A DNA stretch of 12,819 nucleotides from a virus (taxonomy: Duplodnaviria > Heunggongvirae > Uroviricota > Caudoviricetes): positions 1 to 12,819 of IMG/VR virus record IMGVR_UViG_2778260995_000007. One strand, 5' to 3'. Under the pieces are notes generated by a model. That model worked only from the letters and a program-made list of their open reading frames with translations. It did not search any database and was not told the origin of the DNA. The translations under genes and the position numbers were made by a program. Positions 1 to 12,819 of the stretch are shown here, piece after piece (positions within the stretch are counted from its first letter, which is position 1; the number at the start of each line of letters is the position of its first letter).

Positions 1-117
1 GTTTCGCCGATTGTTTCCGGTGAGGTTATCCGTTCCCGTGGCGGCTCCACCTCTGAATTTACGCCGGGATATGTCAAACCCAAGCACTTAGCATGGCTTT
101 CTGAGGCTTTCGTGTAG
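1..117 (+). pseudogene. E: 5' fragment of lambda-type major capsid protein gene E; frame enters from upstream of the window, is broken after codons ...GYVKPKH (nt 87) and runs into element sequence to a TAG at 115-117
   Basis: Frame 1 translates VSPIVSGEVIRSRGGSTSEFTPGYVKPKH, which matches my recollection of lambda gpE; the continuation ...KPKHEVNPQMTLRRL is found at 10733 onward. Confidence 0.8.
77..86. repeat. Left copy of 10-bp direct repeat AACCCAAGCA (putative attL core)
   Basis: Identical 10-mer at 10731-10740; flanking bases differ on both sides. Confidence 0.6.
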
Positions 118-249
118 TTGCTGGTTTTTACACTTAATCTTTTGATAATAAAGAATAAGTTTATCTGGTGCTTTCACTGAATTTTCCTCGTTATCTGTGT
201 GTTGCAATCATCTCTGTATTGCAGCTTGTATTGCTTTTTGGGGCTAAAA

Positions 250-1485
250 ATGGCTGGCGAGAACAAACTGAGCGACAAAGCGCTTAAAGGATATCTGGGG
301 AAACCCAGAGAAAAGCAGATCACCATTGCTGATGGAAAGGGGCTTTCTATTCGTGTGAGTACTAAAGGGGCTGTGAGCTTTGTTTTCTTCTACAGGTTAG
401 CAGGTGGCCGGGCTGCTCCGGTCTGGCTAACGTTGGGTAAATATCCTGATATGTCACTCAAACAGGCAAGGGAAAAGCGCGACGAGTGCCGTGGTTGGTT
501 GGCTGACAAACGTGATCCGCGTATCCAGATAAAGATTCAGGCTGAAGAACGCTTAAAGCCGGTCACAGTGGAGGATGCACTAAATTACTGGTATGAAAAT
601 TACTGTAAGGTGCGTCGTAAAACTCATGCTGTAACGCTTGGCAGATTTCGAAAGCATATCTTTCCCTATATCGGTCATTTGCCCGTAAATGACACTCACC
701 TATATGAATGGCTGGACTGTTTTGACCGAATTAAACGTAATGCACCAGTTATGGCGGCGTATGTTTTTTCTGACACTAAATTAGCTCTTCGTTTTTGTCG
801 GGTACGCCAGTACGCGACGTGTGATGCTTTAAAGGATTTGCGCATGAGTGATGTGGGGCAGATTGCAGGTAAGCGGGATCGGGTTCTGGATGAAGCCGAA
901 CTCGGCCAGCTCTGGAAGGCAATTTTTGTCGAGCCTGATTTAAAACTAATGTCTGAATACACGCGAAAAATGTTTGTGCTTTGTACACTATTTGGATGTC
1001 GAATGAGTGAAGCCCGATTATCAGAATGGAGCGAATGGGATCTCGAAAGTTGGGTTTGGACTGTACCAAAAGATCACTCAAAAACTGGTGTTGAAATCGT
1101 CAGACCAGTACCTGAAATTCTACGACAGTGGGTAACGGATGTTCACGAAGAGACAAAACATACTGGTTATGTGCTGGGAAGTCTGCGAATTAGAGAAAGC
1201 GTAAGCAAGATTGGGGGGAAAATCGGTAAACGTTTGGGCCATGAAAAACAATGGTCACTACACGACCTTAGAAGAACGCTATCTACTCATCTAAGTGATC
1301 TCGGTGTTGAATTTTATGTAGTAGAACAACTGTTAGGCCATGCGCTACCTGGCGTGGCAGGTGTTTACAACCGGAGTAAGTTTATGGCTAAAAAACTGGA
1401 TGCTCTGGAACTCTGGACTACATATCTCAATAGCATCGCAGGTGCTGATTCAAAAGTGACAATCCTCAAACAAAAGGCTGGTTAA
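250..1485 (+). CDS. int: Tyrosine site-specific integrase, P4-type
   Basis: ORF 199-1485; start placed at ATG 250 (MAGENKLSDKALKGYL...). N-terminal region and C-terminal ...HDLRRT...LLGHA... motifs are typical of P4-family integrases; sits next to the attL repeat. Confidence 0.88.
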   Translation: MAGENKLSDKALKGYLGKPREKQITIADGKGLSIRVSTKGAVSFVFFYRLAGGRAAPVWLTLGKYPDMSLKQAREKRDECRGWLADKRDPRIQIKIQAEERLKPVTVEDALNYWYENYCKVRRKTHAVTLGRFRKHIFPYIGHLPVNDTHLYEWLDCFDRIKRNAPVMAAYVFSDTKLALRFCRVRQYATCDALKDLRMSDVGQIAGKRDRVLDEAELGQLWKAIFVEPDLKLMSEYTRKMFVLCTLFGCRMSEARLSEWSEWDLESWVWTVPKDHSKTGVEIVRPVPEILRQWVTDVHEETKHTGYVLGSLRIRESVSKIGGKIGKRLGHEKQWSLHDLRRTLSTHLSDLGVEFYVVEQLLGHALPGVAGVYNRSKFMAKKLDALELWTTYLNSIAGADSKVTILKQKAG

Positions 1486-1486
1486 C

Positions 1487-1714
1487 ATGAAAAAAATGGC
1501 AATTGTTGATAAAAAGGGTCTGGAGTACATTCCTAACATTGATCGTATGATCCGTGAGAAAGAATGTCGGGAGCTAACCACTCTTGCGAACAGCACACGC
1601 TGGAAGCTGGAGAAGGAAGGAAAATTTCCTAAGCGGATCAAGATTGGCGCTACTGCGGTAGCTTACCGTCTCTCCGAAGTTCAGGCATGGATTAGGGGGG
1701 AATGGCGGACATAA
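1487..1714 (+). CDS. alpA: AlpA-family HTH regulator / excisionase-like protein
   Basis: 75 aa; ...LTTLANSTRWKLEKEGKFPKRIKIGATAVAYRLSEVQAWI is a typical AlpA (Phage_AlpA) HTH; ATG lies 1 nt after the int stop, suggesting translational coupling. Confidence 0.8.
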   Translation: MKKMAIVDKKGLEYIPNIDRMIREKECRELTTLANSTRWKLEKEGKFPKRIKIGATAVAYRLSEVQAWIRGEWRT

Positions 1715-1750
1715 ATGTTGTAGTAAATTGTTATATAAAAGGGTGTAAGC

Positions 1751-2626
1751 ATGGCTACTCGAAAAAAAAATAGCGTAGAAATGAAAACTGTTTGTGAACT
1801 AATCATATCAAGAGATGATATGAAAGATAAAATTCAAGACAGAATTCAAAAAGGATTATTACTCCTACAGAAAAGCATAAATAACAATAGTGACTTGGAG
1901 CTGTTTAATGCTGATTACAGGAAATGGAGTGATTTTAATGCTGAGCTACTGAAGCGTAGTTTCACAAATGATGATTTCAAAGAAGAATATGAAGGTGGGG
2001 CATTTGGTGTTATTTCATTGTACGAGACTTCCTTGGGAGAAAAAATCAGTGAGGCTACGCGTAAACTCCAGAGTAAGATAAGAAAACTAGAGTCGATTAT
2101 GGAGCGACTGGAGTTAATTCCTATATCTTCCAAAGTTGTTGAAGAAAATATTGAAGTACCTCAGAGTTCAGCGGTAAAAACCAAAAAAGTATTCATTGTT
2201 CATGGAAGAGATGAAGTATCAAAAACCAACTTAGAAGTGTTTTTAAGAGAAATTGGCTTAGAACCTATTGTTCTCCATAGGCAAGCTGATGTAGGTCAGA
2301 CAGTGATTGAGAAATTTGAAGCAAATAGTGATGTTGGTTTCGCATTCATTCTTCTCACACCTGATGAGATCGCTTATTTATTTCCGCAAGACTCTTTACC
2401 TGATAATGAAAGAGAAAAGGAGTTACGTGCACGACCAAATGTAATGTTTGAATTTGGTTATTTCGTAGGGAAATTAGGTCGTTCTAAGGTTTGTTGTCTA
2501 TACACAGGTGATGTAGTGATTCCAAGTGATTTGAATGGTCTTATTTATAAAAAATTCAATTCTTCTATTGAAGAAGTAGCATATAGCATTATTAAAGACT
2601 TGCGAGCTACTGGTTACGCAGTTTAG
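1751..2626 (+). CDS. Cargo protein with an N-terminal helical region and a C-terminal TIR-like domain (resembles the COG4271/CAP12-type TIR-like fold); candidate anti-phage effector
   Basis: 291-aa ORF, visibly AT-rich compared with neighbours. C-terminal KKVFIVHGRDE...FAFILLTPDE...RARPNVMFEFGYFVGKLGRSKV matches the motif pattern I recall for TIR-like proteins. Not confirmed by search. Confidence 0.6.
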   Translation: MATRKKNSVEMKTVCELIISRDDMKDKIQDRIQKGLLLLQKSINNNSDLELFNADYRKWSDFNAELLKRSFTNDDFKEEYEGGAFGVISLYETSLGEKISEATRKLQSKIRKLESIMERLELIPISSKVVEENIEVPQSSAVKTKKVFIVHGRDEVSKTNLEVFLREIGLEPIVLHRQADVGQTVIEKFEANSDVGFAFILLTPDEIAYLFPQDSLPDNEREKELRARPNVMFEFGYFVGKLGRSKVCCLYTGDVVIPSDLNGLIYKKFNSSIEEVAYSIIKDLRATGYAV

Positions 2627-2655
2627 TAAATTCTTTGAACTAAAAATCTGCATAG

Positions 2656-2688
2656 ATATAGAGCCATTCGAGATAAATGGCTCTATAT
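2656..2688. terminator. Perfect 13-bp inverted repeat (ATATAGAGCCATT / AATGGCTCTATAT, 7-nt loop) between convergent genes; possible bidirectional terminator or protein-binding palindrome
   Basis: Seen directly; lies 30 nt after the stop of the 1751-2626 gene and 14 nt after the stop of the minus-strand RHH ORF. AT-rich stem, and a T-run on the minus strand only after a 9-nt spacer, so terminator function is uncertain. Confidence 0.4.
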
Positions 2689-2701
2689 GAAATATTATCT
2701 G

Positions 2702-2881
2702 TTAAATTTTGACTTCATATCCGCGTTGCTGTAGTTCTTTGCGAATAATCCTTTTAATCCAGGCTGCTAAAGATTCGTCTCCATCTACTTGCTGTGCTTG
2801 CTCCATCAACTCCCTCAACTCAGGATCTAACCGAAACTGGAACGGAGGATTACCACGTCTTTGATTTTTGTGTGTTGACAC
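2702..2881 (-). CDS. Small Arc/MetJ-like ribbon-helix-helix DNA-binding protein (59 aa from GTG 2881; a 34-aa version from ATG 2806 would lack the ribbon strand)
   Basis: Minus-strand translation VSTHKNQRRGNPPFQFRLDPELRELMEQAQQVDGDESLAAWIKRIIRKELQQRGYEVKI has an Arc-like strand-helix-helix pattern. Below the length cut-off of the supplied ORF track; start codon uncertain. Confidence 0.4.
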   Translation of the reverse strand: MSTHKNQRRGNPPFQFRLDPELRELMEQAQQVDGDESLAAWIKRIIRKELQQRGYEVKI

Positions 2882-2929
2882 GTCAATTACACCCGATGTA
2901 ATGTGTTAATGTGTGATGACACATTACAT
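2875..2929. promoter_or_regulatory. Promoter/operator region: plus-strand TTGACA (2875-2880) - 16 nt - TGTAAT (2897-2902); 11-bp inverted repeat ATGTAATGTGT (2896-2906) / ACACATTACAT (2919-2929) plus tandem TAATGTGT (2899-2906, 2907-2914)
   Basis: Seen directly in the intergenic region between the minus-strand RHH ORF and the plus-strand operon starting at 3012; palindrome arms overlap the candidate -10 elements. Confidence 0.4.
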
Positions 2930-2948
2930 ACGTGTTTAGGAAAATGCA

Positions 2949-2981
2949 ACGCCTCGACGTGCGGGAACACCATCGAGGCGT
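2949..2981 (+). promoter_or_regulatory. GC-rich hairpin in the 5' leader of the replication operon (9-bp stem ACGCCTCGA / TCGAGGCGT, 15-nt loop); no downstream U-tract
   Basis: Perfect inverted repeat seen directly, 30 nt upstream of ATG 3012. Confidence 0.3.
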
Positions 2982-3011
2982 CTAACCAACCCGTTAAATG
3001 AGGTAACGATT

Positions 3012-3377
3012 ATGGCTGGAACACAGCATACCCAAACTCACCCTAAATTTATATACACCTTTCTGGCACTACACCACGACCGCATGGCAGATGGAGCAAC
3101 TACGGTACATGTAGCCGCTGACACGCTGGTTGATGCCCGCAAGATGGTTAAGGAGATGGGCTATACTGCGGCTTTCTGGAAAGGGCGTGAAGAAAACACG
3201 CTGTTTATTCAGAAATGCGAAAACAATTTCATCTGGCGTTTTATCGCCCTGAGCACCGCACAACCACGCGTAATACACATCGAGGCCGCCAGCGAACAGG
3301 AAGCCCGGCTGCAATCCCCAACTGGCTACGTGATGATATTCGCCGCCCGTATTCGTCAGGAGGTGTGCCATGAATGA
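3012..3377 (+). CDS. Hypothetical protein, first gene of replication-module operon
   Basis: 121-aa ORF with GAGGT RBS 6 nt upstream; stop overlaps the next start. Confidence 0.65.
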   Translation: MAGTQHTQTHPKFIYTFLALHHDRMADGATTVHVAADTLVDARKMVKEMGYTAAFWKGREENTLFIQKCENNFIWRFIALSTAQPRVIHIEAASEQEARLQSPTGYVMIFAARIRQEVCHE

Positions 3378-3594
3378 TCTTTATTTTAAAGTGCTGACAC
3401 ATGCTGAAAACGCGCTCGTTTGTGGCAAAAATATGCGAGAAATCTTATCAACCTGGCTTGATGGGACAACAAATGCGGAACACGATGAACGGGATGCTAA
3501 TTTAGCTGGAGCGTTAATTACGTTACTTGATCCTGTCATCAAAGAGCTGGATGAAGCTATAAAAATACACGACCAGAGCTATACCGGAGAATAA
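3370..3594 (+). CDS. Hypothetical small protein
   Basis: 74-aa ORF; AGGAGG 4 nt upstream of ATG; 8-nt overlap with the upstream ORF. Confidence 0.6.
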   Translation: MNDLYFKVLTHAENALVCGKNMREILSTWLDGTTNAEHDERDANLAGALITLLDPVIKELDEAIKIHDQSYTGE

Positions 3595-3597
3595 AAA

Positions 3598-3885
3598 ATG
3601 AAAAATAAATTTTCTGGCTTTATTGCCAGCGGTCAAACTCATTCAAAAATCAGCCTTGGGGATATTTTCAAAGACAGCTATGGCTATCGGGTAAAGATTA
3701 TTTCGGTTGATGATCGTCGTGTCTCTTATTTGCGTGATGGTTATGATTTTGAATGTGTTATGCCGCGTCAGCAGTTCGAAAGAGATTTCATTCTGGTAAA
3801 AAATTGCAAGACAGATAATCAGAGGCGTGCCGCAGGCTATATCCGCAAAATTCGGGCAATGTTAGTTGCCGGAGGTAACAAATGA
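3598..3885 (+). CDS. Hypothetical small protein
   Basis: 95-aa ORF packed tightly between neighbours; stop overlaps the primase start (ATGA). Confidence 0.6.
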   Translation: MKNKFSGFIASGQTHSKISLGDIFKDSYGYRVKIISVDDRRVSYLRDGYDFECVMPRQQFERDFILVKNCKTDNQRRAAGYIRKIRAMLVAGGNK

Positions 3886-5633
3886 AACGTGCTCCGAACT
3901 TAAAATACCAACCGCGCGACAAAATGACAGAAGTCATCATTTTTGCTGGCAGTGATGCCTGGAGCCATGCAAAAGAATGGAATGAATGGGCGGGTAAGCA
4001 TATTGCCGCCGACGATGTGCCGCCTGTCGTGCTGGCTGATGAGCAACTGAAAAATATCACCGATTACCGGATCATTGATGAAGATCGTCAGTGTGTGCGT
4101 GTTTACCGCGCAGGACATATCACAGAGCACAGCATGACGCAGATTGTTACGTTACTGGCTGTGGCTGGAGTGAAGACCGTACACGAATACGCGGGGATTA
4201 CTGACACCAGCCCAGTGGATTTATCCGAGCAGTTGCCGCGACTCAAAGAGGAATGCGAGCGTGGGGAAAGTCTGGTGCTTAATCTTCCGACGAAGCAAAA
4301 GGCGCAACTTTCACAGATGGCAGACAGTGAACGTGCACAACTACTTGCCGATCGCTTTGATGGTGTGTGTGTTCATGCAGAAAGTGAAATCGTCCACGTA
4401 TGGCGCGGCGGGGTATGGTGTCCGGTCAGCACAATGGAGCTGAGCCGCGAAATGGTGGCGATCTATTCAGAGCACAGGGCCACGTTCAGCAAACGTGTAA
4501 TCAATAACGCCGTGGAAGCGTTAAAAGTTATTGCCGACCCCATGGGGGAGCCGTCCGGTGATTTGCTACCGTTCACTAATGGTGTGCTTAACCTGAAAAC
4601 GGGGGAATTTTCTCCGCACTCGCCGGAGCACTGGAGCACCACGCACAATGGCATTGAGTACACGCCACCAGTAGCAGGGGAAAACATCCGCGATAATGCG
4701 CCAAATTTCCATAAATGGCTTGAACATGCTGCAAGAAAAGACCCGCGCAAGATGATGCGTATATGTGCCGCGTTATACATGATTATGGCGAACCGCTACG
4801 ACTGGCAGATGTTCATTGAGGCCACCGGAGACGGGGGAAGCGGTAAGAGTACATTTACCCATATTGCCACCCTGCTTGCTGGCAAACAGAACACCGTAAG
4901 CGCGGAGATGACATCACTCGATGATGCAGGAGGGCGCGCGCAGGTTGTCGGGAGTCGTCTTATCGTCCTTGCCGATCAGCCGAAATATACGGGGGAAGGC
5001 ACGGGCATCAAGAAAATCACGGGAGGCGATCCCGTTGAAATTAACCCGAAATATGAGAAGCGATTCACGACGATAATAAGGGCGGTGGTACTGGCAACCA
5101 ATAACGACCCGATGATCTTTACCGAACGAGCCGGAGGTGTGTCACGCCGTCGGGTGATTTTCCGGTTCGACAACATTGTAAGGGAGGACGAAAAAGACAA
5201 GGAATTACCGGAAAAGATAGCGGCAGAAATCCCCGTAATTATCCGCCGCTTGCTGGCTAATTTTGCTGACCCTGAAAAGGCACGGGCTTTATTACTGGAA
5301 CAGCGTGACGGTGATGAAGCTCTGGCAATAAAGCAGCAAACGGATCCGGTTGTTGAGCTTTGCGCGGCGCTGGAGTTTCTGGAGGAAGCTCGTGGGCTAA
5401 TGATGGGCGGTGGTGGTGACACCGTGAAGTACACGACCAGAAACAGCCTTTACCGTGTCTATATGGCCTTCATGGCATACACAGGAAAGGGGAAATGTTT
5501 GAGCGTGAATGAGTTCGGAAAGGCTATGAGGTCAGCGGCGAAAGTTTACGGATATGAATATATTACGCGAAAAGTTAAGGGAGTCACGCAGACCAACGCA
5601 ACGACTACTGATGATTGCGATGCGTTTTTATAA
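3882..5633 (+). CDS. Replication initiator: primase-associated SF3 helicase-type protein (P4 alpha C-terminal / D5-like family; the pri-rep of PICI-type satellites)
   Basis: 583 aa; Walker A GDGGSGKST and a downstream hydrophobic strand ending in D (LIVLAD) typical of P4-family primase-helicase C-terminal domains; GGAGG RBS; followed by an iteron array. Confidence 0.85.
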   Translation: MKRAPNLKYQPRDKMTEVIIFAGSDAWSHAKEWNEWAGKHIAADDVPPVVLADEQLKNITDYRIIDEDRQCVRVYRAGHITEHSMTQIVTLLAVAGVKTVHEYAGITDTSPVDLSEQLPRLKEECERGESLVLNLPTKQKAQLSQMADSERAQLLADRFDGVCVHAESEIVHVWRGGVWCPVSTMELSREMVAIYSEHRATFSKRVINNAVEALKVIADPMGEPSGDLLPFTNGVLNLKTGEFSPHSPEHWSTTHNGIEYTPPVAGENIRDNAPNFHKWLEHAARKDPRKMMRICAALYMIMANRYDWQMFIEATGDGGSGKSTFTHIATLLAGKQNTVSAEMTSLDDAGGRAQVVGSRLIVLADQPKYTGEGTGIKKITGGDPVEINPKYEKRFTTIIRAVVLATNNDPMIFTERAGGVSRRRVIFRFDNIVREDEKDKELPEKIAAEIPVIIRRLLANFADPEKARALLLEQRDGDEALAIKQQTDPVVELCAALEFLEEARGLMMGGGGDTVKYTTRNSLYRVYMAFMAYTGKGKCLSVNEFGKAMRSAAKVYGYEYITRKVKGVTQTNATTTDDCDAFL

Positions 5634-5646
5634 AAAATGGCAATGG

Positions 5647-5875
5647 TTATCTACCTTGTCTACCTGACTGAAAGAAAATACTTTTATTTCAATGTATTAA
5701 TGCAGGTAGATAACTATTTTTCACTGTCTACCTGTTATCTACCTTATCTACCCATTTTTGTAGACAGGTAAGGAGACGGGTAGAGATGAGGTAGACAGCT
5801 ATTTGGGGCTGTCTACCTCCCTGAAACCCGCGCCATTACTGGCCTGATAACTAATCAGGTAGACAAGGTAGACAA
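5647..5875. repeat. Iteron array, putative replication origin: about 12 copies of GGTAGA(C/T)A in both orientations around an AT-rich stretch (5667-5700)
   Basis: Seen directly: TTATCTACC/TTGTCTACC tandem at 5647-5664; GGTAGATAA at 5705-5713; three copies at 5725-5753; GGTAGACAA x2 at 5858-5875, and others. Confidence 0.7.
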
Positions 5876-5922
5876 GGTGGTGGTGCACAAAAAACTTTTT
5901 AAACGAGGGGGTAAAAATAAAA

Positions 5923-6165
5923 ATGCACACATCAGGAAAACTGAACAAACATATAAAGCCACATTACCGCGCCCTTGATATGGCTGAACACTGGCTAAGG
6001 GTGGCGATTAAGGCAATAGACCGCAACGCCGGGGAAGGATACGCGAAAGCACATCCCGAACTGATAAGCGCATTCATGACAACGGCGGCTGCAAACTTTG
6101 CCACGCTGACCGAACGGGAGATTGCCGAAGCGGAGGAAGTGACAACCATCAATATTAAGTCCTGA
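5923..6165 (+). CDS. Hypothetical protein
   Basis: 80-aa ORF with a G-rich RBS upstream; no recognisable motif. Confidence 0.5.
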   Translation: MHTSGKLNKHIKPHYRALDMAEHWLRVAIKAIDRNAGEGYAKAHPELISAFMTTAAANFATLTEREIAEAEEVTTINIKS

Positions 6166-6176
6166 GAGCAGGCAGC

Positions 6177-6626
6177 ATGACGGCGCAAATAGCAGCTTAC
6201 GGGCGGCTGGTGGACGAGCCACAGGTAAAACATACCAGCAAGGGAACACCCATGACACTGGCACGGATGGCGGTATCTTTGCCATGCAGCCAGGCAGATG
6301 ACGGAACGGCGACGATGTGGTTATCTGTGCTGGCGTTTGGCAGACAAGCCGACGCGCTGGCAAAGCATCACAAAGGCGAACTCCTGAGCGTGGCGGGTAA
6401 TATGCAGGTGAGCCAGTGGACTGGACAGAACGGTGAAACGCGGCAGGGCTGGCAGGTTATCGCAGACAGCGTAATCAGTGCGCGAACGGTGCGACCGGGC
6501 GGCAAAAAAGGTCAACAGGGTCAGGCTACTGACGCACTGAACAGAGCAAAACAACAGGCAGATCAGCAAGGAAGCCATCCACCAGTGGGAGATAATGAAC
6601 AATGGGGAGATGATATTCCGTTTTAA
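6177..6626 (+). CDS. Single-stranded DNA-binding protein-like (OB fold) with canonical acidic C-terminal tip ...DDIPF
   Basis: 149 aa; OB-fold pattern (...WLSVLAFGRQAD...KGELLSVAGNMQVSQWTGQNGETRQGWQV...) followed by a Gly/Gln-rich linker and C-terminal DDIPF, as in bacterial SSB. Confidence 0.7.
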   Translation: MTAQIAAYGRLVDEPQVKHTSKGTPMTLARMAVSLPCSQADDGTATMWLSVLAFGRQADALAKHHKGELLSVAGNMQVSQWTGQNGETRQGWQVIADSVISARTVRPGGKKGQQGQATDALNRAKQQADQQGSHPPVGDNEQWGDDIPF

Positions 6627-6645
6627 ATATTGCCAATAAAAAAAG

Positions 6646-6670
6646 GCCGGAAAAAAATAAATTTTCCGGC
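6646..6670. terminator. Hairpin (9-bp stem GCCGGAAAA / TTTTCCGGC, 7-nt loop) downstream of the SSB-like gene; A-tract on the 5' side only
   Basis: Seen directly; a T-run follows the stem only when read on the minus strand, so plus-strand termination is uncertain. Confidence 0.35.
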
Positions 6671-6844
6671 ATGCTACATAAATCCCGACCAAAGGGAGTG
6701 AAGATATTAACACTAATTATCCGCGCTGAAGTTGTTATCCCAAAACTTTATACAACATTGCACTCGGTTGCATGTATTCGCATGACAAATATCGGTGATA
6801 GCATATATCCACAATTATTTTTAATGAATGCAAAGAGGATGCGT

Positions 6845-7885
6845 ATGGTCGATTTATATTCGCCTACCCAGCTTGTACAGGTGGTTAATGCTGTAGATGT
6901 ACAAAAACAACTAAATGCGTTGTTTACCAGTTTGTTTTTTACTCGCTCTGTAATGTTTGAATCGCGCGATATTATTCTTGATACAATCGACGATCCAAAT
7001 ATCCCAATTGCAGCGTTTTGTTCTCCTATGGTGGGTAGTAAAGTTTCACGTGACGAAGGGTACGAATCAAAAACAATTCGTCCAGGCTATATGAAGCCGA
7101 AAAGCAGCATTGATCCAAATAAGTTAGCTGTGCGCCCTGCTGGTGTATCACCTGAGCAATACAATGCTTTTGGAGCGCGTAATATTAAAGTTAAACAGGC
7201 GATTGTAAATCAGGCTAAAGCTATTCGTGCACGTATTGAATGGCTTGCCGTTCAGGCAATCACAACGGGGAAAAATATCATTGAGGGCGATGGTATTGAA
7301 CGTTATGAACTGGACTGGAATATAAAACCACAAAATATTATCACGCAGTCTGGCGGTGCTGAGTGGTCAGGTAAGGATAAAGAAACTTTTGATCCAAATG
7401 ATGATATTGAGAGCTACGCAGAATTTAGTGAGGGCGTCACTAATATCATCATTATGGGCGGTAATGTATGGAAGAAATACCGTTCATTCAGAGCGATAAA
7501 AGAGGCTCTGGATACCCGCCGTGGTTCTAATTCCGAACTGGAAACGGCCCTTAAAGACCTTGGTGATTCGGTGAGTTTTAAAGGGTATATGGGCGATGTT
7601 GCGATTGTTGTTTACAGCGGACGTTATACCGACGAGGACGGAACTGAAAAACATTTCCTTGATCCTGATTTGATGGTGCTTGGCAATACGGCTCTTCAGG
7701 GGATTGTCGCCTATGGCGGTATTCAGGATCCGGAGCTAACCCGAATGGGGCTGACTAAAGCCGAACTTGCACCGAAAAACTATATTGTGCCTGGTGATCC
7801 GGCTATTGAGTACGTACAAACGCACTCTGCACCACAGCCAATACCGGCCCGCATCAATCGTTTTGTTACCGTTCGCATTGGCTAA
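6845..7885 (+). CDS. Major capsid protein, diverged homologue of lambda gpE, encoded by the element
   Basis: Start moved to ATG 6845 (AAGAGG RBS), giving 346 aa, close to lambda E in size. Shares blocks with lambda E as I recall it: PGYMKPK, ITQSGGAEW, LDTRRGSNSELETA, GDVAIVVYSG, VLGNT, GDPA (roughly 40-50% identity by eye). Confidence 0.8.
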   Translation: MVDLYSPTQLVQVVNAVDVQKQLNALFTSLFFTRSVMFESRDIILDTIDDPNIPIAAFCSPMVGSKVSRDEGYESKTIRPGYMKPKSSIDPNKLAVRPAGVSPEQYNAFGARNIKVKQAIVNQAKAIRARIEWLAVQAITTGKNIIEGDGIERYELDWNIKPQNIITQSGGAEWSGKDKETFDPNDDIESYAEFSEGVTNIIIMGGNVWKKYRSFRAIKEALDTRRGSNSELETALKDLGDSVSFKGYMGDVAIVVYSGRYTDEDGTEKHFLDPDLMVLGNTALQGIVAYGGIQDPELTRMGLTKAELAPKNYIVPGDPAIEYVQTHSAPQPIPARINRFVTVRIG

Positions 7886-7894
7886 GGGGGAGCA

Positions 7895-8236
7895 ATGGCT
7901 ACTCATTACACTGAACTCATGTCTGGCACTGAAGCACTGGTTACTACGCTGGGGATATTTTCAGCCAATAAAGGGGTAATACCTGCGTTTACGCCACTGA
8001 TGCAGGAAGATGCAACTGGTGCGCTAGTGGTATGGGATGGAACGAGCGCAGGCAAAGCGGTTTATGTTTCCGCTGTACAAATCGACACAGCGAAAAAAAC
8101 ACAGGCACAGGTTTATAAGACAGGTGTTTTAAATGTTGATGCTCTGAACTGGCCTGAGTCTGTAAGAGAACTGTCGGCAAAGGTTGCCGCGTTTGTTGGC
8201 TCAGGTATTTCTGTTCAGCCGCTGGCTCGTGTGTAA
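7895..8236 (+). CDS. Head decoration protein, homologue of lambda gpD
   Basis: 113 aa; ...PAFTPLMQEDATGALVVWDGTSAGKAV...YKTGVLNVDALNWPE...AAFVGSGISV parallels lambda D (...PAMTPLM...LVAWDGTTDGAAV...YKSGTFRYEDVLWPE...TAFAGTAISIV); AAGGGGGA RBS. Confidence 0.8.
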   Translation: MATHYTELMSGTEALVTTLGIFSANKGVIPAFTPLMQEDATGALVVWDGTSAGKAVYVSAVQIDTAKKTQAQVYKTGVLNVDALNWPESVRELSAKVAAFVGSGISVQPLARV

Positions 8237-8247
8237 AGGGGGATACA

Positions 8248-8631
8248 ATGCAGAATCATTACAATGACCTTAAGCCAATTGCCGAAATGATGTACCCGAA
8301 TCCAGCTGTAGAGGAATTAAAAGCTATCGCTGACAAAATGTGTTTAAGCGAGCGCCTTGTTGATATGAATCAGGTGATGGAAATTACAACCCTGAGTCGG
8401 CGTACACTGCTAAACCTTGAGGCTAGTGGAGAGTTCCCGGAGCGTGTGCAGGTTACGGAAGGGCGTAAGGCCTGGTATTTAAGTGAAGTGATCGACTGGA
8501 TAAATAATATTCCTCGCGCTTCTGAATATTGCCGCGTACCTGTCCCAAAAAAGCCAGATGCGGCGCTATGCCTCAAGATTGAGCGTGTACGCCGCAATGC
8601 ACGGGATGGTCGCTATAAGCTGATTGGTTGA
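8248..8631 (+). CDS. AlpA/MerR-like HTH DNA-binding protein, larger than a typical AlpA, function unknown
   Basis: 127 aa; central ...MEITTLSRRTLLNLEASGEFPERVQVTEGRKAWYLSEVIDWI is an AlpA-type HTH; AAAGGGGGA RBS; follows the capsid genes. Confidence 0.65.
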   Translation: MQNHYNDLKPIAEMMYPNPAVEELKAIADKMCLSERLVDMNQVMEITTLSRRTLLNLEASGEFPERVQVTEGRKAWYLSEVIDWINNIPRASEYCRVPVPKKPDAALCLKIERVRRNARDGRYKLIG

Positions 8632-9287
8632 TGAAATTAGGGCCCGCTCTGGCTGGCGGGTCCTTTCCGGCGATCCAGAACGTTACGGGGCGTCAGGCGC
8701 GCAGTTTTTTGCTATTTATGAAAATTTTCCGGTTTAAAGCGTTTCCGTTCTTCTTCGCCGTAACTTAATGTTTTTATTAGAAACACCCACTAAAAAGAAA
8801 GGAAACAACAGATGCTGAAAACGTGTTTTTTGGACAGTGTCGTTTCCTTTCTCTGGTTTTGTTGCCGTCTGTCGCGGTCTGTCACCAGAAAAAACTCTCA
8901 CCCCTGCGTTGAATCAGGCTCTACACTAAAGTAGACAATAACGCGCCGCTGGCTTCGCTTCATGGTCGTGGCCTACTTCTGCACTATCGCAACAGCCTTA
9001 TGCGCCCTGCTGGTGAGCTATTGAGTAAGCAGAATGCGGATTACAAGGCATCCTATGCGTTTTGTGGCGTACCGAACACAACCGCTCAGGTGAATCCCGT
9101 TTTGTTAGTTTATGGAAAGAGCCGTATCGGGGGCGCAATCATTTCTGCGTGGATCTATGTCGAAGACAAAATGTGGTATGCGCATCTGGCCGGAGGGTGA
9201 GCAATTTATCAGGGAAGTATCATCTCTACAGGTTTAAGACAACCAGAAGAAGTTATCGAGCAAGTTGGGTATGAAGATTTTCCTATA

Positions 9288-9551
9288 ATGGTAACGTTTA
9301 AGATTCCGGTGTTTGGTATCGTGGTGGGAACATGGAGGAATGTGGATCCGGCAAAATCATTCGGTTTTTTCCGTCAATTCATTGTGGACTGGGATTAGGA
9401 GAGTGTGCTTACTGACCAAGCTCTTAAGGGATATTTATATGCTTACCTAGGCACTGATGAAGCACTTTTCAAATGCTGGGCGGATTATATGAAATGCAGA
9501 TTGGCAGAAAATGAACATAGGTTTAAAAAATATACTGAGACTGTAAACTGA
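9288..9551 (+). pseudogene. Possible decayed ORF: 87-codon frame broken by an in-frame TAG at 9396-9398, no RBS
   Basis: Translation MVTFKIPVFGIVVGTWRNVDPAKSFGFFRQFIVDWD*ESVLTDQALKGYLYAYLGTDEALFKCWADYMKCRLAENEHRFKKYTETVN*; sits in a ~1 kb stretch (8632-9676) without convincing genes. Confidence 0.2.
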
Positions 9552-9676
9552 GTTCGCTGTGATTTAATTCGTGATTTAATCGAAGAGAGGAAAGTGAAAT
9601 GAGCCCTGCTAAGGGCCGCATCTTTATATTGAACGACTTATCACTAGATTAGGAAATCACTTCGAATGATATGCTG

Positions 9677-10549
9677 TTACTTTATAATTCCGTCTTTGAA
9701 AACCATTTTCTTAGCGCCAGAGGTATAGTTTTGAACAATTCCCAATAACTCTTTTGAATAGTCAATTGTAGAAATTGTCTCTGCCGGTTTGTTATATGTG
9801 TAATTAAGTGAGTAACCTCTCAGCTTTAATCTTAAATCACCATTTTCTAACTCTAAATAAGCGTCGGTTAGCTCTTCTTTGTAAGTGCCTGCACCATATT
9901 GGATGTTAGGTACTCTCGCGGATAAGGAGTTTTCTAAGTCGCAGAGAGAATACTTGTCGTGGGTAGTATTATCAACGATGAATATTTGGTTGTTAAGTAG
10001 TCGACTGAACCTTGAATTTAAATCATCTATGTTTAAATTTTTTTGCGACTCAAGCCAGCTTGCATCTATCATTGGTGAGAATGCAGTTATTCTGGGGGGA
10101 GTTATCGCGACGATATTCAATTGAATAGTTTTGATAAGTGGTGTTCCATCTGGCGCGCGCCAGTCTTCGTTATCAGCTTCACGAACTATTAGAAGGTCAA
10201 TTTTATATTGTTCGGCTTTTTTTTGAGCCCCACTTTGATACCCTGTTTTGGTTGCATAAATTAGTCTTAGGCCGGGAATATCTGCTGTTTTTCCGATGAA
10301 TGCGTCAATTTTCTCGATACTTACACTTGAAGCGTAGTCTTTGCATTCGATTACGGTCTTATATTCATAACCTCCTAAGTTAAATTCCCAATACACATCG
10401 AATTGCCTAGTTATGCCGTTTTTATCTACGATTTTTTTGTTTACTTCAACGGTGATGTTTTTCAAGTGAGAAATTTTCTCAGCTTGTATCAAGCTTTGAT
10501 GAATCGCCCCAACAAATTCCTCATAATCTCTGCCAGTGTTTTTAGTCAT
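9677..10549 (-). CDS. Mrr-type restriction-endonuclease-like (PD-(D/E)xK) protein with an uncharacterised C-terminal domain; candidate defence nuclease
   Basis: Start placed at ATG 10549 (GAGG RBS 8 nt upstream; the track's 10567 start is TTG), 290 aa. N-terminal half shows a PD-(D/E)xK pattern (...QFDVYWEF...YKTVIECKDY...SIEKIDAFIGK...LIYATKTGYQSGA...). Visibly AT-rich. Confidence 0.75.
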   Translation of the reverse strand: MTKNTGRDYEEFVGAIHQSLIQAEKISHLKNITVEVNKKIVDKNGITRQFDVYWEFNLGGYEYKTVIECKDYASSVSIEKIDAFIGKTADIPGLRLIYATKTGYQSGAQKKAEQYKIDLLIVREADNEDWRAPDGTPLIKTIQLNIVAITPPRITAFSPMIDASWLESQKNLNIDDLNSRFSRLLNNQIFIVDNTTHDKYSLCDLENSLSARVPNIQYGAGTYKEELTDAYLELENGDLRLKLRGYSLNYTYNKPAETISTIDYSKELLGIVQNYTSGAKKMVFKDGIIK

Positions 10550-10730
10550 TGTGCAGCCTCGTTCCAATCATCAGAGTAACGGTTAAATATTTATACACCT
10601 TGAATCTATGAACAGATTTATGTCACTTCACGCTGTATTGCACGCTGTATTGCATTAAGGAGGAATAATGTCGATTTGATGATGTTTTATCAAGTAAATT
10701 CATTCACATCCTTTCATATTTGACTCATGT

Positions 10731-10740
10731 AACCCAAGCA
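10731..10740. repeat. Right copy of 10-bp direct repeat AACCCAAGCA (putative attR core)
   Basis: Identical to 77-86; the E reading frame resumes directly here (CCC AAG CAT GAG GTG = P K H E V). Confidence 0.6.
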
Positions 10741-11521
10741 TGAGGTGAATCCGCAGATGACCCTGCGTCGCCTGCCGGATGAAGATCCGCAGAATCTGGC
10801 GGACCCAGCTTACCGCCGCCGTCGCATCATCATGCAGAACATGCGTGACGAAGAGCTGGCCATTGCTCAGGTCGAAGAGATGCAGGCAGTTTCTGCCGTG
10901 CTTAAGGGCAAATACACCATGACCGGTGAAGCCTTCGATCCGGTTGAGGTGGATATGGGCCGCAGTGCGGCGAATAACATCACGCAGTCCGGCGGCACGG
11001 AGTGGAGCAAGCGTGACAAGTCCACGTATGACCCGACCGACGATATCGAAGCCTACGCGCTGAACGCCAGCGGTGTGGTGAATATCATCGTGTTTGATCC
11101 GAAAGGCTGGGCGCTGTTCCGTTCCTTCAAAGCCGTCAAGGAGAAGCTGGATACCCGTCGTGGCTCTAATTCCGAGCTGGAGACAGCGGTGAAAGACCTG
11201 GGTAAAGCGGTGTCCTATAAGGGGATGTATGGCGATGTTGCCATCGTCGTGTATTCCGGACAGTACGTGGAAAACGGTGTCAAAAAGAACTTCCTGCCGG
11301 ACAACACGATGGTGCTGGGGAACACTCAGGCACGCGGTCTGCGTACCTATGGCTGTATTCAGGATTCGGACGCACAGCGCGAAGGCATTAACGCATCTGC
11401 CCGTTACCCGAAAAACTGGGTGACCACCGGCGATCCGGCGCGTGAGTTCACCATGATTCAGTCAGCACCGCTGATGCTGCTGGCTGACCCTGATGAGTTC
11501 GTGTCCGTACAACTGGCGTAA
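10733..11521 (+). pseudogene. E: 3' fragment of lambda-type major capsid protein gene E (from ...KPKHEVNPQMTLRRL to the C-terminus)
   Basis: Translation matches my recollection of the lambda gpE C-terminal ~260 aa almost residue for residue; an in-frame TAA at 10730-10732 closes the frame upstream. Confidence 0.85.
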
Positions 11522-11523
11522 TC

Positions 11524-11550
11524 ATGGCCCTTCGGGGCCATTTTCTCTCT
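11524..11550 (+). terminator. Rho-independent terminator-like hairpin after E (ATGGCCC-TTCG-GGGCCAT followed by a T-rich tract)
   Basis: 7-bp GC-rich stem with TTCG tetraloop and TTTTCTCTCT tail, seen directly 3 nt after the E stop. Confidence 0.6.
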
Positions 11551-11562
11551 GTGGAGGAGTCC

Positions 11563-11961
11563 ATGACGAAAGATGAACTGATTGCCCGCCTCCGCTCGTT
11601 GGGTGAGCAACTGAACCGTGATGTCAGCCTGACGGGGACGAAAGAAGAACTGGCGCTCCGTGTGGCAGAGCTGGAAGAGGAGCTTGATGACACGGATGAC
11701 ACTGCCGGTCAGGACACCCCTCTCAGCCCGGAAAATGTGCTGACCGGGCATGAAAATGAGGCTGTATCAGCGCAGCCGGATACCGTGATTCAGGATGCGG
11801 CTGATCTGGTCACCGTTGTGGCACTGGTGACGCTGCATACTGATGCACTTCACGCCATCCGGGATGAACCTGTGGCATTTGTGATGCCGGGAACGGCGTT
11901 CCGTGTCTCTGCCGGTGTGGCAACCGAAATGACAGAACGCGGCCTGGCCAGAATGCAATAA
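11563..11961 (+). CDS. FI: Lambda-type head assembly/DNA packaging protein FI
   Basis: Start at ATG 11563 with GGAGGAG RBS (the track's ORF begins upstream at 11524); MTKDELIARLRSLGEQLNRDVSLTGTKEELALRVAEL... matches lambda gpFI as I recall it. Confidence 0.88.
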   Translation: MTKDELIARLRSLGEQLNRDVSLTGTKEELALRVAELEEELDDTDDTAGQDTPLSPENVLTGHENEAVSAQPDTVIQDAADLVTVVALVTLHTDALHAIRDEPVAFVMPGTAFRVSAGVATEMTERGLARMQ

Positions 11962-11972
11962 CGGGAGGCGCT

Positions 11973-12326
11973 GTGGCTGATTTCGATAACCTGTTCGATG
12001 CTGCCATTGCCCGCGCCGATGAAACGATACGCGGGTACATGGGAACGTCAGCCACCATTACATCCGGTGAGCAGTCCGGTGCTGTGATACGTGGTGTTTT
12101 TGATGACCCTGAAAATATCAGCTATGCCGGACAGGGCGTGCGCGTTGAAGGCTCCAGCCCGTCCCTGTTTGTCCGGACTGATGAGGTGCGGCAGCTGCGG
12201 CGTGGAGACACGCTGACCATCGGTGAGGAAAACTTCTGGATAGACCGGGTTTCGCCGGATGATGGCGGAAGTTGTCATCTCTGGCTTGGACGGGGCGTAC
12301 CGCCTGCCGTTAACCGTCGCCGCTGA
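11973..12326 (+). CDS. FII: Lambda-type head-tail joining protein FII
   Basis: GTG start with GGGAGG RBS; MADFDNLFDAAIARADETIRGYMGTSATITSGEQSGAVIRGVFDDPENISYAGQGVRVEG... matches lambda gpFII. Confidence 0.88.
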   Translation: MADFDNLFDAAIARADETIRGYMGTSATITSGEQSGAVIRGVFDDPENISYAGQGVRVEGSSPSLFVRTDEVRQLRRGDTLTIGEENFWIDRVSPDDGGSCHLWLGRGVPPAVNRRR

Positions 12327-12337
12327 AAGGGGGATGT

Positions 12338-12819
12338 ATGGCCATAAAAGGTCTTGAGCAGGCCGTTGAAAACCTCAGCCGTATCAGCAAAACGGCGGTG
12401 CCCGGTGCCGCCGCAATGGCCATTAACCGCGTTGCGTCATCCGCGATATCGCAGTCGGCGTCACAGGTTGCCCGAGAGACAAAGGTACGCCGGAAACTGG
12501 TAAAGGAAAGGGCCATGCTGAAAAGGGCCACGGTCAAAAATCCGCAGGCCAGAATCAAAGTTAACCGGGGGGATTTGCCCGTAATAAAGCTGGGTAACGC
12601 GCGGGTTGTCCTGTCCCGACGCAGGCGTCGTAAAAAGGGGCAGCGTTCATCCCTGAAAGGTGGCGGCAGCGTGCTTGTGGTGGGAAACCGTCGTATTCCC
12701 GGCGCGTTTATTCAGCAACTGAAAAATGGCAGGTGGCATGTTATGCAGCGTGTGGCCGGGAAAAACCGTTACCCCATTGATGTGGTGAAAATCCCGATGG
12801 CGGTGCCGCTGACCACGGC
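12338..12819 (+). CDS. Z: Lambda-type tail protein Z, 5' partial (runs off the window end)
   Basis: ATG 12338 with AAAGGGGGA RBS; MAIKGLEQAVENLSRISKTAVPGAAAMAINRVASSAISQ... matches lambda gpZ; no stop before the window end. Confidence 0.85.
   Translation, partial: MAIKGLEQAVENLSRISKTAVPGAAAMAINRVASSAISQSASQVARETKVRRKLVKERAMLKRATVKNPQARIKVNRGDLPVIKLGNARVVLSRRRRRKKGQRSSLKGGGSVLVVGNRRIPGAFIQQLKNGRWHVMQRVAGKNRYPIDVVKIPMAVPLTT

Follow-up and report, generated by a model that had tools for sequence, protein, structure and literature searches.

A single-stranded-DNA-binding protein gene in the replication module of a helper-embedded PICI

Background

The closest described relatives of the element analyzed here are the PICIs and, among them, the helper-embedded PICIs (HE-PICIs), whose configuration was set out by Tommasini, Mageeney & Williams 2023 (PMC10111431). 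The founding HE-PICI, 11capE, occupies gene E, measures 11 kb, and shows a 10-bp block of att identity, and 201 HE-PICI instances were reported at the gene E site (PMC10111431). The same study places SSB together with Primase in the PICI replication zone (Tommasini et al. 2023, PMC10111431), and SSB appears in two of four PICI gene profiles among those listed in its supplement. For the model PICI EcCICFT073, characterized by Fillol-Salom et al. 2018 (PMC6092414), a clone described as containing rep + ori replicates autonomously in DH5alpha. The main text of that characterization (PMC6092414) never mentions ssb, and in the literature that we searched we found no experiments on any PICI SSB.

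Mobile elements of other kinds also encode SSBs. Those of F/IncI-type plasmids (PRK13732) keep a host-type tip, as does the satellite protein examined here, but they are located in the conjugative leading region rather than in a replication module. The tip is of interest because replisome and repair proteins of E. coli bind the C-terminal tip of the host SSB, a set of contacts known as the SSB interactome. Among satellites, phage P4 offers a useful comparison: it is likewise integrative, operates a D5_N-type primase/helicase on iterons (ori/crr), and uses the host polymerase. Replication of P4 in vitro needs host SSB, Pol III holoenzyme, and gyrase, and to our knowledge P4 encodes no SSB of its own. 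The present element differs from P4 in having no recognizable sid, psu, or delta and in having lambda E- and D-like genes.

In the present manuscript, we examine an ssb gene within a stretch of 12,819 nucleotides (hereafter, “the window”; positions 1 to 12,819 of IMG/VR record IMGVR_UViG_2778260995_000007). An earlier note on this DNA had proposed that the window holds an element-encoded SSB-like protein with the host-type DDIPF tip, which could recruit the host replisome to an adjacent iteron origin or act as a decoy or competitor for helper or host SSB. Elements of this type, an SSB among the replication-zone genes of PICIs, and the annotation of the protein itself have all been recorded before; our analysis concerns the identity of the protein, its setting, and the role that it may have.

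Results

The element

The window contains a helper-embedded PICI that has inserted into gene E of a lambda-like prophage. A 10-bp direct repeat, AACCCAAGCA, occurs exactly twice in the window, compared to 0.05 copies expected by chance, and delimits an insert of 10.65 kb (Table 1). At the left end, window positions 1-93 encode part of the interior of a major capsid protein E of the lambda type. At the right end, the C-terminal gene E fragment matches Phage_cap_E profile positions 94-328. The ORFs that follow, FI and FII, correspond in the RefSeq annotation of E. coli HYM1 to a DNA-packaging protein (FI) and a protein for head-tail joining. The ssb gene lies inside the insert between the two repeats, which makes it element-encoded, and the identification of the element as an HE-PICI makes it satellite-encoded, both as the earlier note had supposed.

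The insert begins with the integrase, the AlpA-position regulator, the TIR protein, and small ORFs, and continues through DUF4222, primase, iterons, and an 80-aa ORF to ssb. Downstream of ssb come the lambda E and D homologues, a second AlpA-type regulator, and, on the opposite strand, an Mrr-like nuclease. The unidirectional succession of int, alpA, a variable zone, primase + ori, and late genes is the GN-PICI order. With the PICIs and HE-PICIs of PMC10111431, the element has in common the rightward layout, the gene E insertion, the 10-bp att block, and the position of ssb after the ori. E. coli HYM1 carries the same element within gene E of a complete lambdoid prophage, with ~97% DNA identity over 74% of the window and with different cargo genes; the HYM1 SSB is annotated as WP_000126719.1. 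More broadly, elements at the gene E site show ~97% DNA identity, with 72-74% of the window covered. Given the target site and this level of identity, the integrase would belong to the late-gene-targeting clade of HE-PICIs. A tRNA scan of the window found none, so the element has no tRNA attachment site. Some PICIs are reported to have C4/isrK immunity RNAs; at gathering thresholds, Rfam finds neither these nor any other match across the window.

Table 1 Features of the window (nucleotide positions unless marked as residues)
Feature	Position	Strand	Remarks
attL core AACCCAAGCA	77-86	+	End of N-terminal fragment of prophage major capsid gene E
Tyrosine integrase	199-1485	+	RefSeq orthologue annotated with a later start
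Small helix-turn-helix regulator, AlpA position	1487-1714	+	
TIR-domain protein, 291 aa	1751-2626	+	CAP12/Pycsar-type TIR, Pfam 1.5e-33
DUF4222-family ORF	3598-3885	+	Precedes primase; DUF4222 annotation of orthologue in locus L001
Primase/replicase (D5_N + DUF5906 + Pox_D5-like)	3882-5633	+	Pfam
Iteron origin	5648-5874	both orientations	10 copies of GGTAGAYA
Small ORF	5923-6165	+	80 aa, phrog_1231; directly upstream of ssb
ssb	6177-6626	+	ATG start, 149 aa, stop included; ORF listing
ssb product: OB fold	residues ~1-103		
ssb product: low-confidence tail	residues 104-141		
ssb product: tip	residues 142-149		QWGDDIPF
GC-rich hairpin GCCGGAAAA...TTTTCCGGC	6646-6670		After ssb, ends replication module
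E-like gene	~6845-7885		Carried by satellite
D-like gene	7895-8236		Carried by satellite
Mrr-like nuclease, 296 aa	9677-10567	-	Weak Mrr_cat match, 1.2e-4
attR core AACCCAAGCA	10731-10740	+	Just before C-terminal gene E fragment (10745-11521)

Several features of the insert lie apart from ssb. The satellite interrupts gene E of its prophage yet brings its own E-like and D-like genes, an arrangement that stands out more than any other feature of the window but is already published. The slot after the AlpA-position regulator is variable, holding the TIR protein here and a DUF2971 protein in HYM1; the TIR protein matches the PADLOC candidate defense system PDC-S35 (4.9e-67). The nuclease ORF near the right end is called “restriction endonuclease” in the HYM1 annotation, is not matched by PADLOC, and probably represents accessory defense cargo. 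The ~1 kb (8632-9676) that separates the nuclease gene from the second AlpA-type regulator is devoid of a convincing ORF; the HE-PICI paper places a cos-like sequence, common to the helper, in the corresponding region (PMC10111431).

Identity and predicted structure of the SSB

By family and by predicted fold, the ssb ORF encodes a genuine bacterial-type single-stranded-DNA-binding protein, which would be expected to bind ssDNA. The product, whose C-terminal residues are NEQWGDDIPF, matches Pfam PF00436 SSB over residues 5-99 (E=2.3e-14; 53.7 bits against a cut-off of 26 bits), NCBIfam TIGR00621 “ssb” (62.5 bits against a cut-off of 53.95 bits), and PHROG 44 “single strand DNA binding protein” (9.6e-37). 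As the TIGR00621 alignment spans residues 5-149 and runs up to the final profile position, the C-terminal tip is included in the family match. A sequence search of the PDB (E up to 1) returned 28 matches, 26 of which are SSB entries; the top match is 1z9f (1.6e-10), and E. coli SSB 1eyg is found at 3.7e-5. The two non-SSB matches, to a catalase (E of 0.003) and to a globulin (E of 0.57), are weak. Near-identical copies, at 94-99% DNA identity, are already annotated as SSB in RefSeq. The SSB-like protein had been proposed in the earlier note at exactly these coordinates, and the PF00436, TIGR00621, and PHROG 44 matches bear this out.

We modeled the protein with AlphaFold2, using an input alignment of 49 family sequences. 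In the model, residues 2-102 consist of beta strands and a single short helix (55-62) in an OB-fold topology, with pLDDT of 70-88 in the OB blocks; pLDDT falls below 50 in the tail (104-149), except for a weak helix at 116-130. When the model was compared with the PDB by Foldseek, all 50 best matches were SSB structures (bacterial, plus one mitochondrial), with a probability of 1.0 and TM-scores of 0.64-0.78 normalized to the target. An OB fold in the structure prediction, on which the earlier note had made its reading depend, is therefore found both in the model and in the fold comparison. The predicted architecture is an N-terminal OB fold, then a flexible linker, then an acidic/hydrophobic C-terminal tip, as expected of the bacterial SSB family.

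Comparison with E. coli SSB

Identity to E. coli K-12 SSB (EcSSB; b4059) is only 24% in the OB domain. Three of the four aromatic ssDNA contacts of EcSSB are retained: the stacking residues W54, F60, and W88 correspond to W48, F54, and W81 in the satellite SSB, whereas W40 is replaced by Cys37, a cysteine that is conserved across the satellite SSB family. At the tetramer interface, H55 of EcSSB is replaced by Leu49. The tips of the two proteins (DFDDDIPF in EcSSB, QWGDDIPF in the satellite SSB) have aromatic-x-D-D-I-P-F in common, but the satellite tip contains fewer acidic residues; the “host-type” label given to it earlier thus holds for the motif and not for its acidity. The tail is also shorter (~46 aa versus ~65 aa) and of a different character, being partly conserved, K/R-containing, and possibly helical at 104-130, whereas that of EcSSB is Gly/Gln/Pro-rich. 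Because of the less acidic tip and the W40-to-Cys and H55-to-Leu replacements, the binding mode, oligomeric state, and partner range of the satellite SSB may differ from those of EcSSB.

Two possible sources of the gene can be dismissed at this point. A recent copy of the host ssb was rejected on account of the 24% identity. Against the enterobacterial subfamily model PRK09010, the satellite SSB scores 23 bits compared to a cut-off of 260. EcSSB reaches 227 bits with the plasmid model PRK13732; this model is not among the matches of the satellite SSB, which argues against a plasmid-type SSB.

Conservation across the family

Conservation was computed by column from 108 aligned sequences, namely the query and 107 full-length homologues. 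The mean top-residue frequency is 0.88 in the OB domain (1-103), 0.68 in the linker (104-141), where indels occur at 131-141, and 0.82 in the tip (142-149), with 0.86 for the final five residues (145-149). A terminal F is present in 113 of the 120 listed homologues, and the remainder look partial or truncated. The family tip consensus is P-[YWF]-G-D-x-I-P-F, with IPF conserved; common tips are PYGDNIPF, PYGDGIPF, PYEDEIPF, PFSDDIPF, PYGDDIPF, and QWGDDIPF. What stays constant among them is a core of aromatic-x-D-x-I-P-F, while the number of acidic residues is variable. Pairwise dN/dS values of 0.13-0.20 over six loci, with dS up to 1.6, indicate that ssb is under purifying selection.

The start of the linker (residues 104-130; nt 6486-6566, TVRPGGKKGQQGQATDALNRAKQQ) is fairly conserved, contains K/R, and has a weak helix prediction. 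A motif resembling “SARTxRPGG” after the OB fold recurs in distant short SSBs.

Distribution of the family

Searching 5.8 billion proteins yielded 722 relatives of the SSB. The best 120 of these 722 are 66-97% identical and almost all come from Escherichia, Shigella, or Salmonella, and every protein among them that is named by its source is called SSB. At the DNA level, the gene is present in 1797 of 5426 complete E. coli genomes, in up to six copies, nearly all of them chromosomal. Among 60 E. coli matches to the stretch from primase to ssb, taken as a spread sample, 50 coincide with an annotated SSB. When 1.84 billion cluster representatives were searched exhaustively without a profile, 308 clusters were found at E <= 1e-10, many of which are short SSBs of 125-170 aa with tips of the form [FY]-[DN]-D-x-[ILV]-P-F; the ten distant relatives that we looked up are mostly metagenome proteins, with one from Hafnia. 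Matches by tblastn were found in 34 of 72,556 plasmid records, and no relative above 31% identity was found in 50,697 phage genome records. With no close homologue in these phage records, capture of the gene from a helper phage was rejected as well.

The replication module

The ten GGTAGAYA iterons occupy the stretch that separates the primase stop codon (5633) from the small ORF, the same position, 3' of the replicase gene, to which the Gram-negative PICI ori has been mapped (Fillol-Salom et al. 2018, PMC6092414). Only 0.42 copies of this sequence would be expected, and none of 200 shuffles attained 10, so the adjacent iteron origin of the earlier note is confirmed as a feature of the locus. 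The hairpin that follows ssb was scored as a terminator on the minus strand only in a consensus scan. No polymerase is annotated in the element or detectable in it by Pfam, and the ORF listing, Pfam, and PHROG reveal no recombinase or annealing protein.

The small ORF is of the same kind as its counterparts in related PICIs except that it stops five codons early. Its relatives are 85 aa long, with a stop that overlaps the ATG of ssb as ATGA. Through the early TGA, this overlap, with any translational coupling, is replaced here by an 11-nt gap; the TGA occupies 6163-6165, five codons before the stop of the 85-aa relatives. No Pfam or NCBIfam family matches the small ORF, and its sole family match, phrog_1231, is a PHROG with no assigned function. 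Its 163 homologues are essentially all from Escherichia, Shigella, or Citrobacter. AlphaFold2 predicts a two-helix hairpin, for which Foldseek against the PDB gave nothing usable (best E = 4.2).

The small ORF and ssb recur together as a cassette at seven of the loci compared (L001, L003-L006, L011, and L014). In capsid-forming PICIs, which have a D5_N primase and a full HK97 head module downstream, the cassette follows the replicase and ori, as it also does in a PICI whose helicase is of the RepA family. In the DUF927-type Salmonella islands, 400 nt lacking any called small ORF separate the replicase from the ssb gene that follows it. Thus, three replicase types precede ssb. The model PICI EcCICFT073 has the cassette too (L014; NC_004431.1 1384284-1384948), in the order DUF4222, primase, 85-aa ORF, SSB, PerC, capsid c1499, and decoration c1500. 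Its SSB (WP_000126698.1) is 136 aa long, ends in PYGDDIPF, and is 69% identical to the satellite SSB. Compared with the SSBs of EcCICFT073 and other PICIs, the protein in the window is a 149-aa form with a longer linker and with QWGDDIPF in place of PYGDDIPF or PYGDNIPF. Two related PICIs with a TerS-type late module, those of E. coli 2015C-3101 (L015) and OkiPb01699 (L016), have DUF4222, the replicase, and the small ORF without ssb. As some related PICIs do without it, the gene is common but accessory.

Discussion

The satellite ssb is a correct but ordinary finding: the NCBI pipeline annotates the gene routinely, the model PICI shares it, and the family is very common in complete E. coli genomes. 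As EcCICFT073 has the same gene, the role of the SSB in Gram-negative PICIs can be addressed in an existing genetic system, and knowing that role would bear on defense systems that sense foreign SSBs.

The role that we favor, and consider probable though well short of assured, is that of an accessory replication protein: the satellite SSB would boost the local supply of SSB and couple satellite forks to the host replisome, without being essential. After induction and excision, the satellite primase/helicase would open the iteron origin ~300 bp upstream of ssb, and the satellite SSB, as a product of the same rightward gene set, would coat the single strands so exposed. Its D-D-I-P-F tip may then dock host readers of the EcSSB motif, e.g., the chi subunit of Pol III, or PriA. 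The local SSB supply would be raised at a time when helper and satellite DNA both replicate heavily, and satellite forks would be coupled to the host replisome through the SSB tip. Docking of host proteins would matter because the satellite brings its own replicase, whereas a polymerase is neither annotated in it nor detectable by Pfam. That the cassette is paired with three replicase types suggests a conserved partner among the host proteins, not one specific to a given replicase. On the question of necessity, the autonomous replication of the EcCICFT073 rep + ori clone implies that host SSB suffices for basal replication, and, together with the PICIs that have no ssb, it argues that ssb is not essential. 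The ssDNA binding, oligomeric state, tip-host contacts, expression timing, and replication benefit of the satellite SSB are all things that we infer here, and a conserved gene position is no proof of function.

Other roles have to be weighed against the same observations. The satellite SSB might interfere with the helper, by favoring satellite forks or by titrating host SSB-interacting proteins via its tip; this would slow helpers of the lambda type, which depend on host SSB. The earlier note had suggested competition with a helper SSB, but there is no annotated ssb in the Qin-like prophage that hosts the element in HYM1, nor in the CFT073 icd prophage (lambda O/P, exo/bet/gam) that is the helper of EcCICFT073, so this suggestion misfits both of the helper-type prophages inspected. 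The same two prophages do count in favor of interference through host SSB or its partners, as do the absence of the family, at more than 31% identity, from the 50,697 phage records searched, a tip that is kept yet less acidic, and the fact that EcCICFT073 interferes with lambda, with no relief when its capsid or decoration homologues are deleted. Nevertheless, we regard interference as unlikely, since ssb is located in the replication zone and not among the late-zone or accessory genes, and many PICIs are without it; moreover, the interference by EcCICFT073 was reportedly attributed later to redirection of packaging by Rpp. A bolder form of this idea, which strikes us as slightly less likely again, is that the PICI SSBs form a satellite-specific lineage, absent from sequenced phages and with only 24% identity to host SSB, whose altered features (a conserved basic and possibly helical tail segment, a less acidic tip, and Cys at the W40 position) would capture the host replisome preferentially for satellite DNA and so starve lambda-type helpers that have no SSB. 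If true, the satellite SSB would be a replication-level interference factor and not a housekeeping duplicate.

Defense ranks lower still in our estimation. Here the SSB would serve as a decoy, shield, or trigger of SSB or ssDNA sensors, or as a partner of the element's own defense cargo. Phage SSBs do trigger several defense systems (Retron-Eco8, AbpAB, Hna, and DRT10 have a documented phage-SSB precedent), and the element has both the PDC-S35-type TIR protein and the Mrr-like nuclease. However, a PADLOC scan of the SSB gave no match, and ssb does not adjoin the cargo genes, its constant neighbors being the replicase and ori; the cargo differs between otherwise near-identical elements while the position of ssb stays the same. 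We find it just as improbable that the SSB aids recombination-dependent replication or multimerization, by which a 10.6-kb genome could fill phage-sized heads from cos to cos. GN-PICI DNA is packaged at phage length, some phage SSB genes are annotated next to genes for single-strand-annealing proteins, and a conserved small ORF is coupled to ssb, all of which would suit such a role. On the other hand, no recombinase or annealing protein was detected in the element, and the partner ORF, predicted as a helical hairpin of 80 aa, has no informative match and is also found where ssb is missing. Recruitment of the host replisome to the satellite origin would be the reading that fits the anatomy of the locus best.

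A minor observation concerns Salmonella islands. Four of the loci compared (L007-L010) contain a second, shorter SSB-domain ORF of 114 aa at ~11117-11461 in the coordinates of these loci, located ~3 kb downstream of the first ssb.
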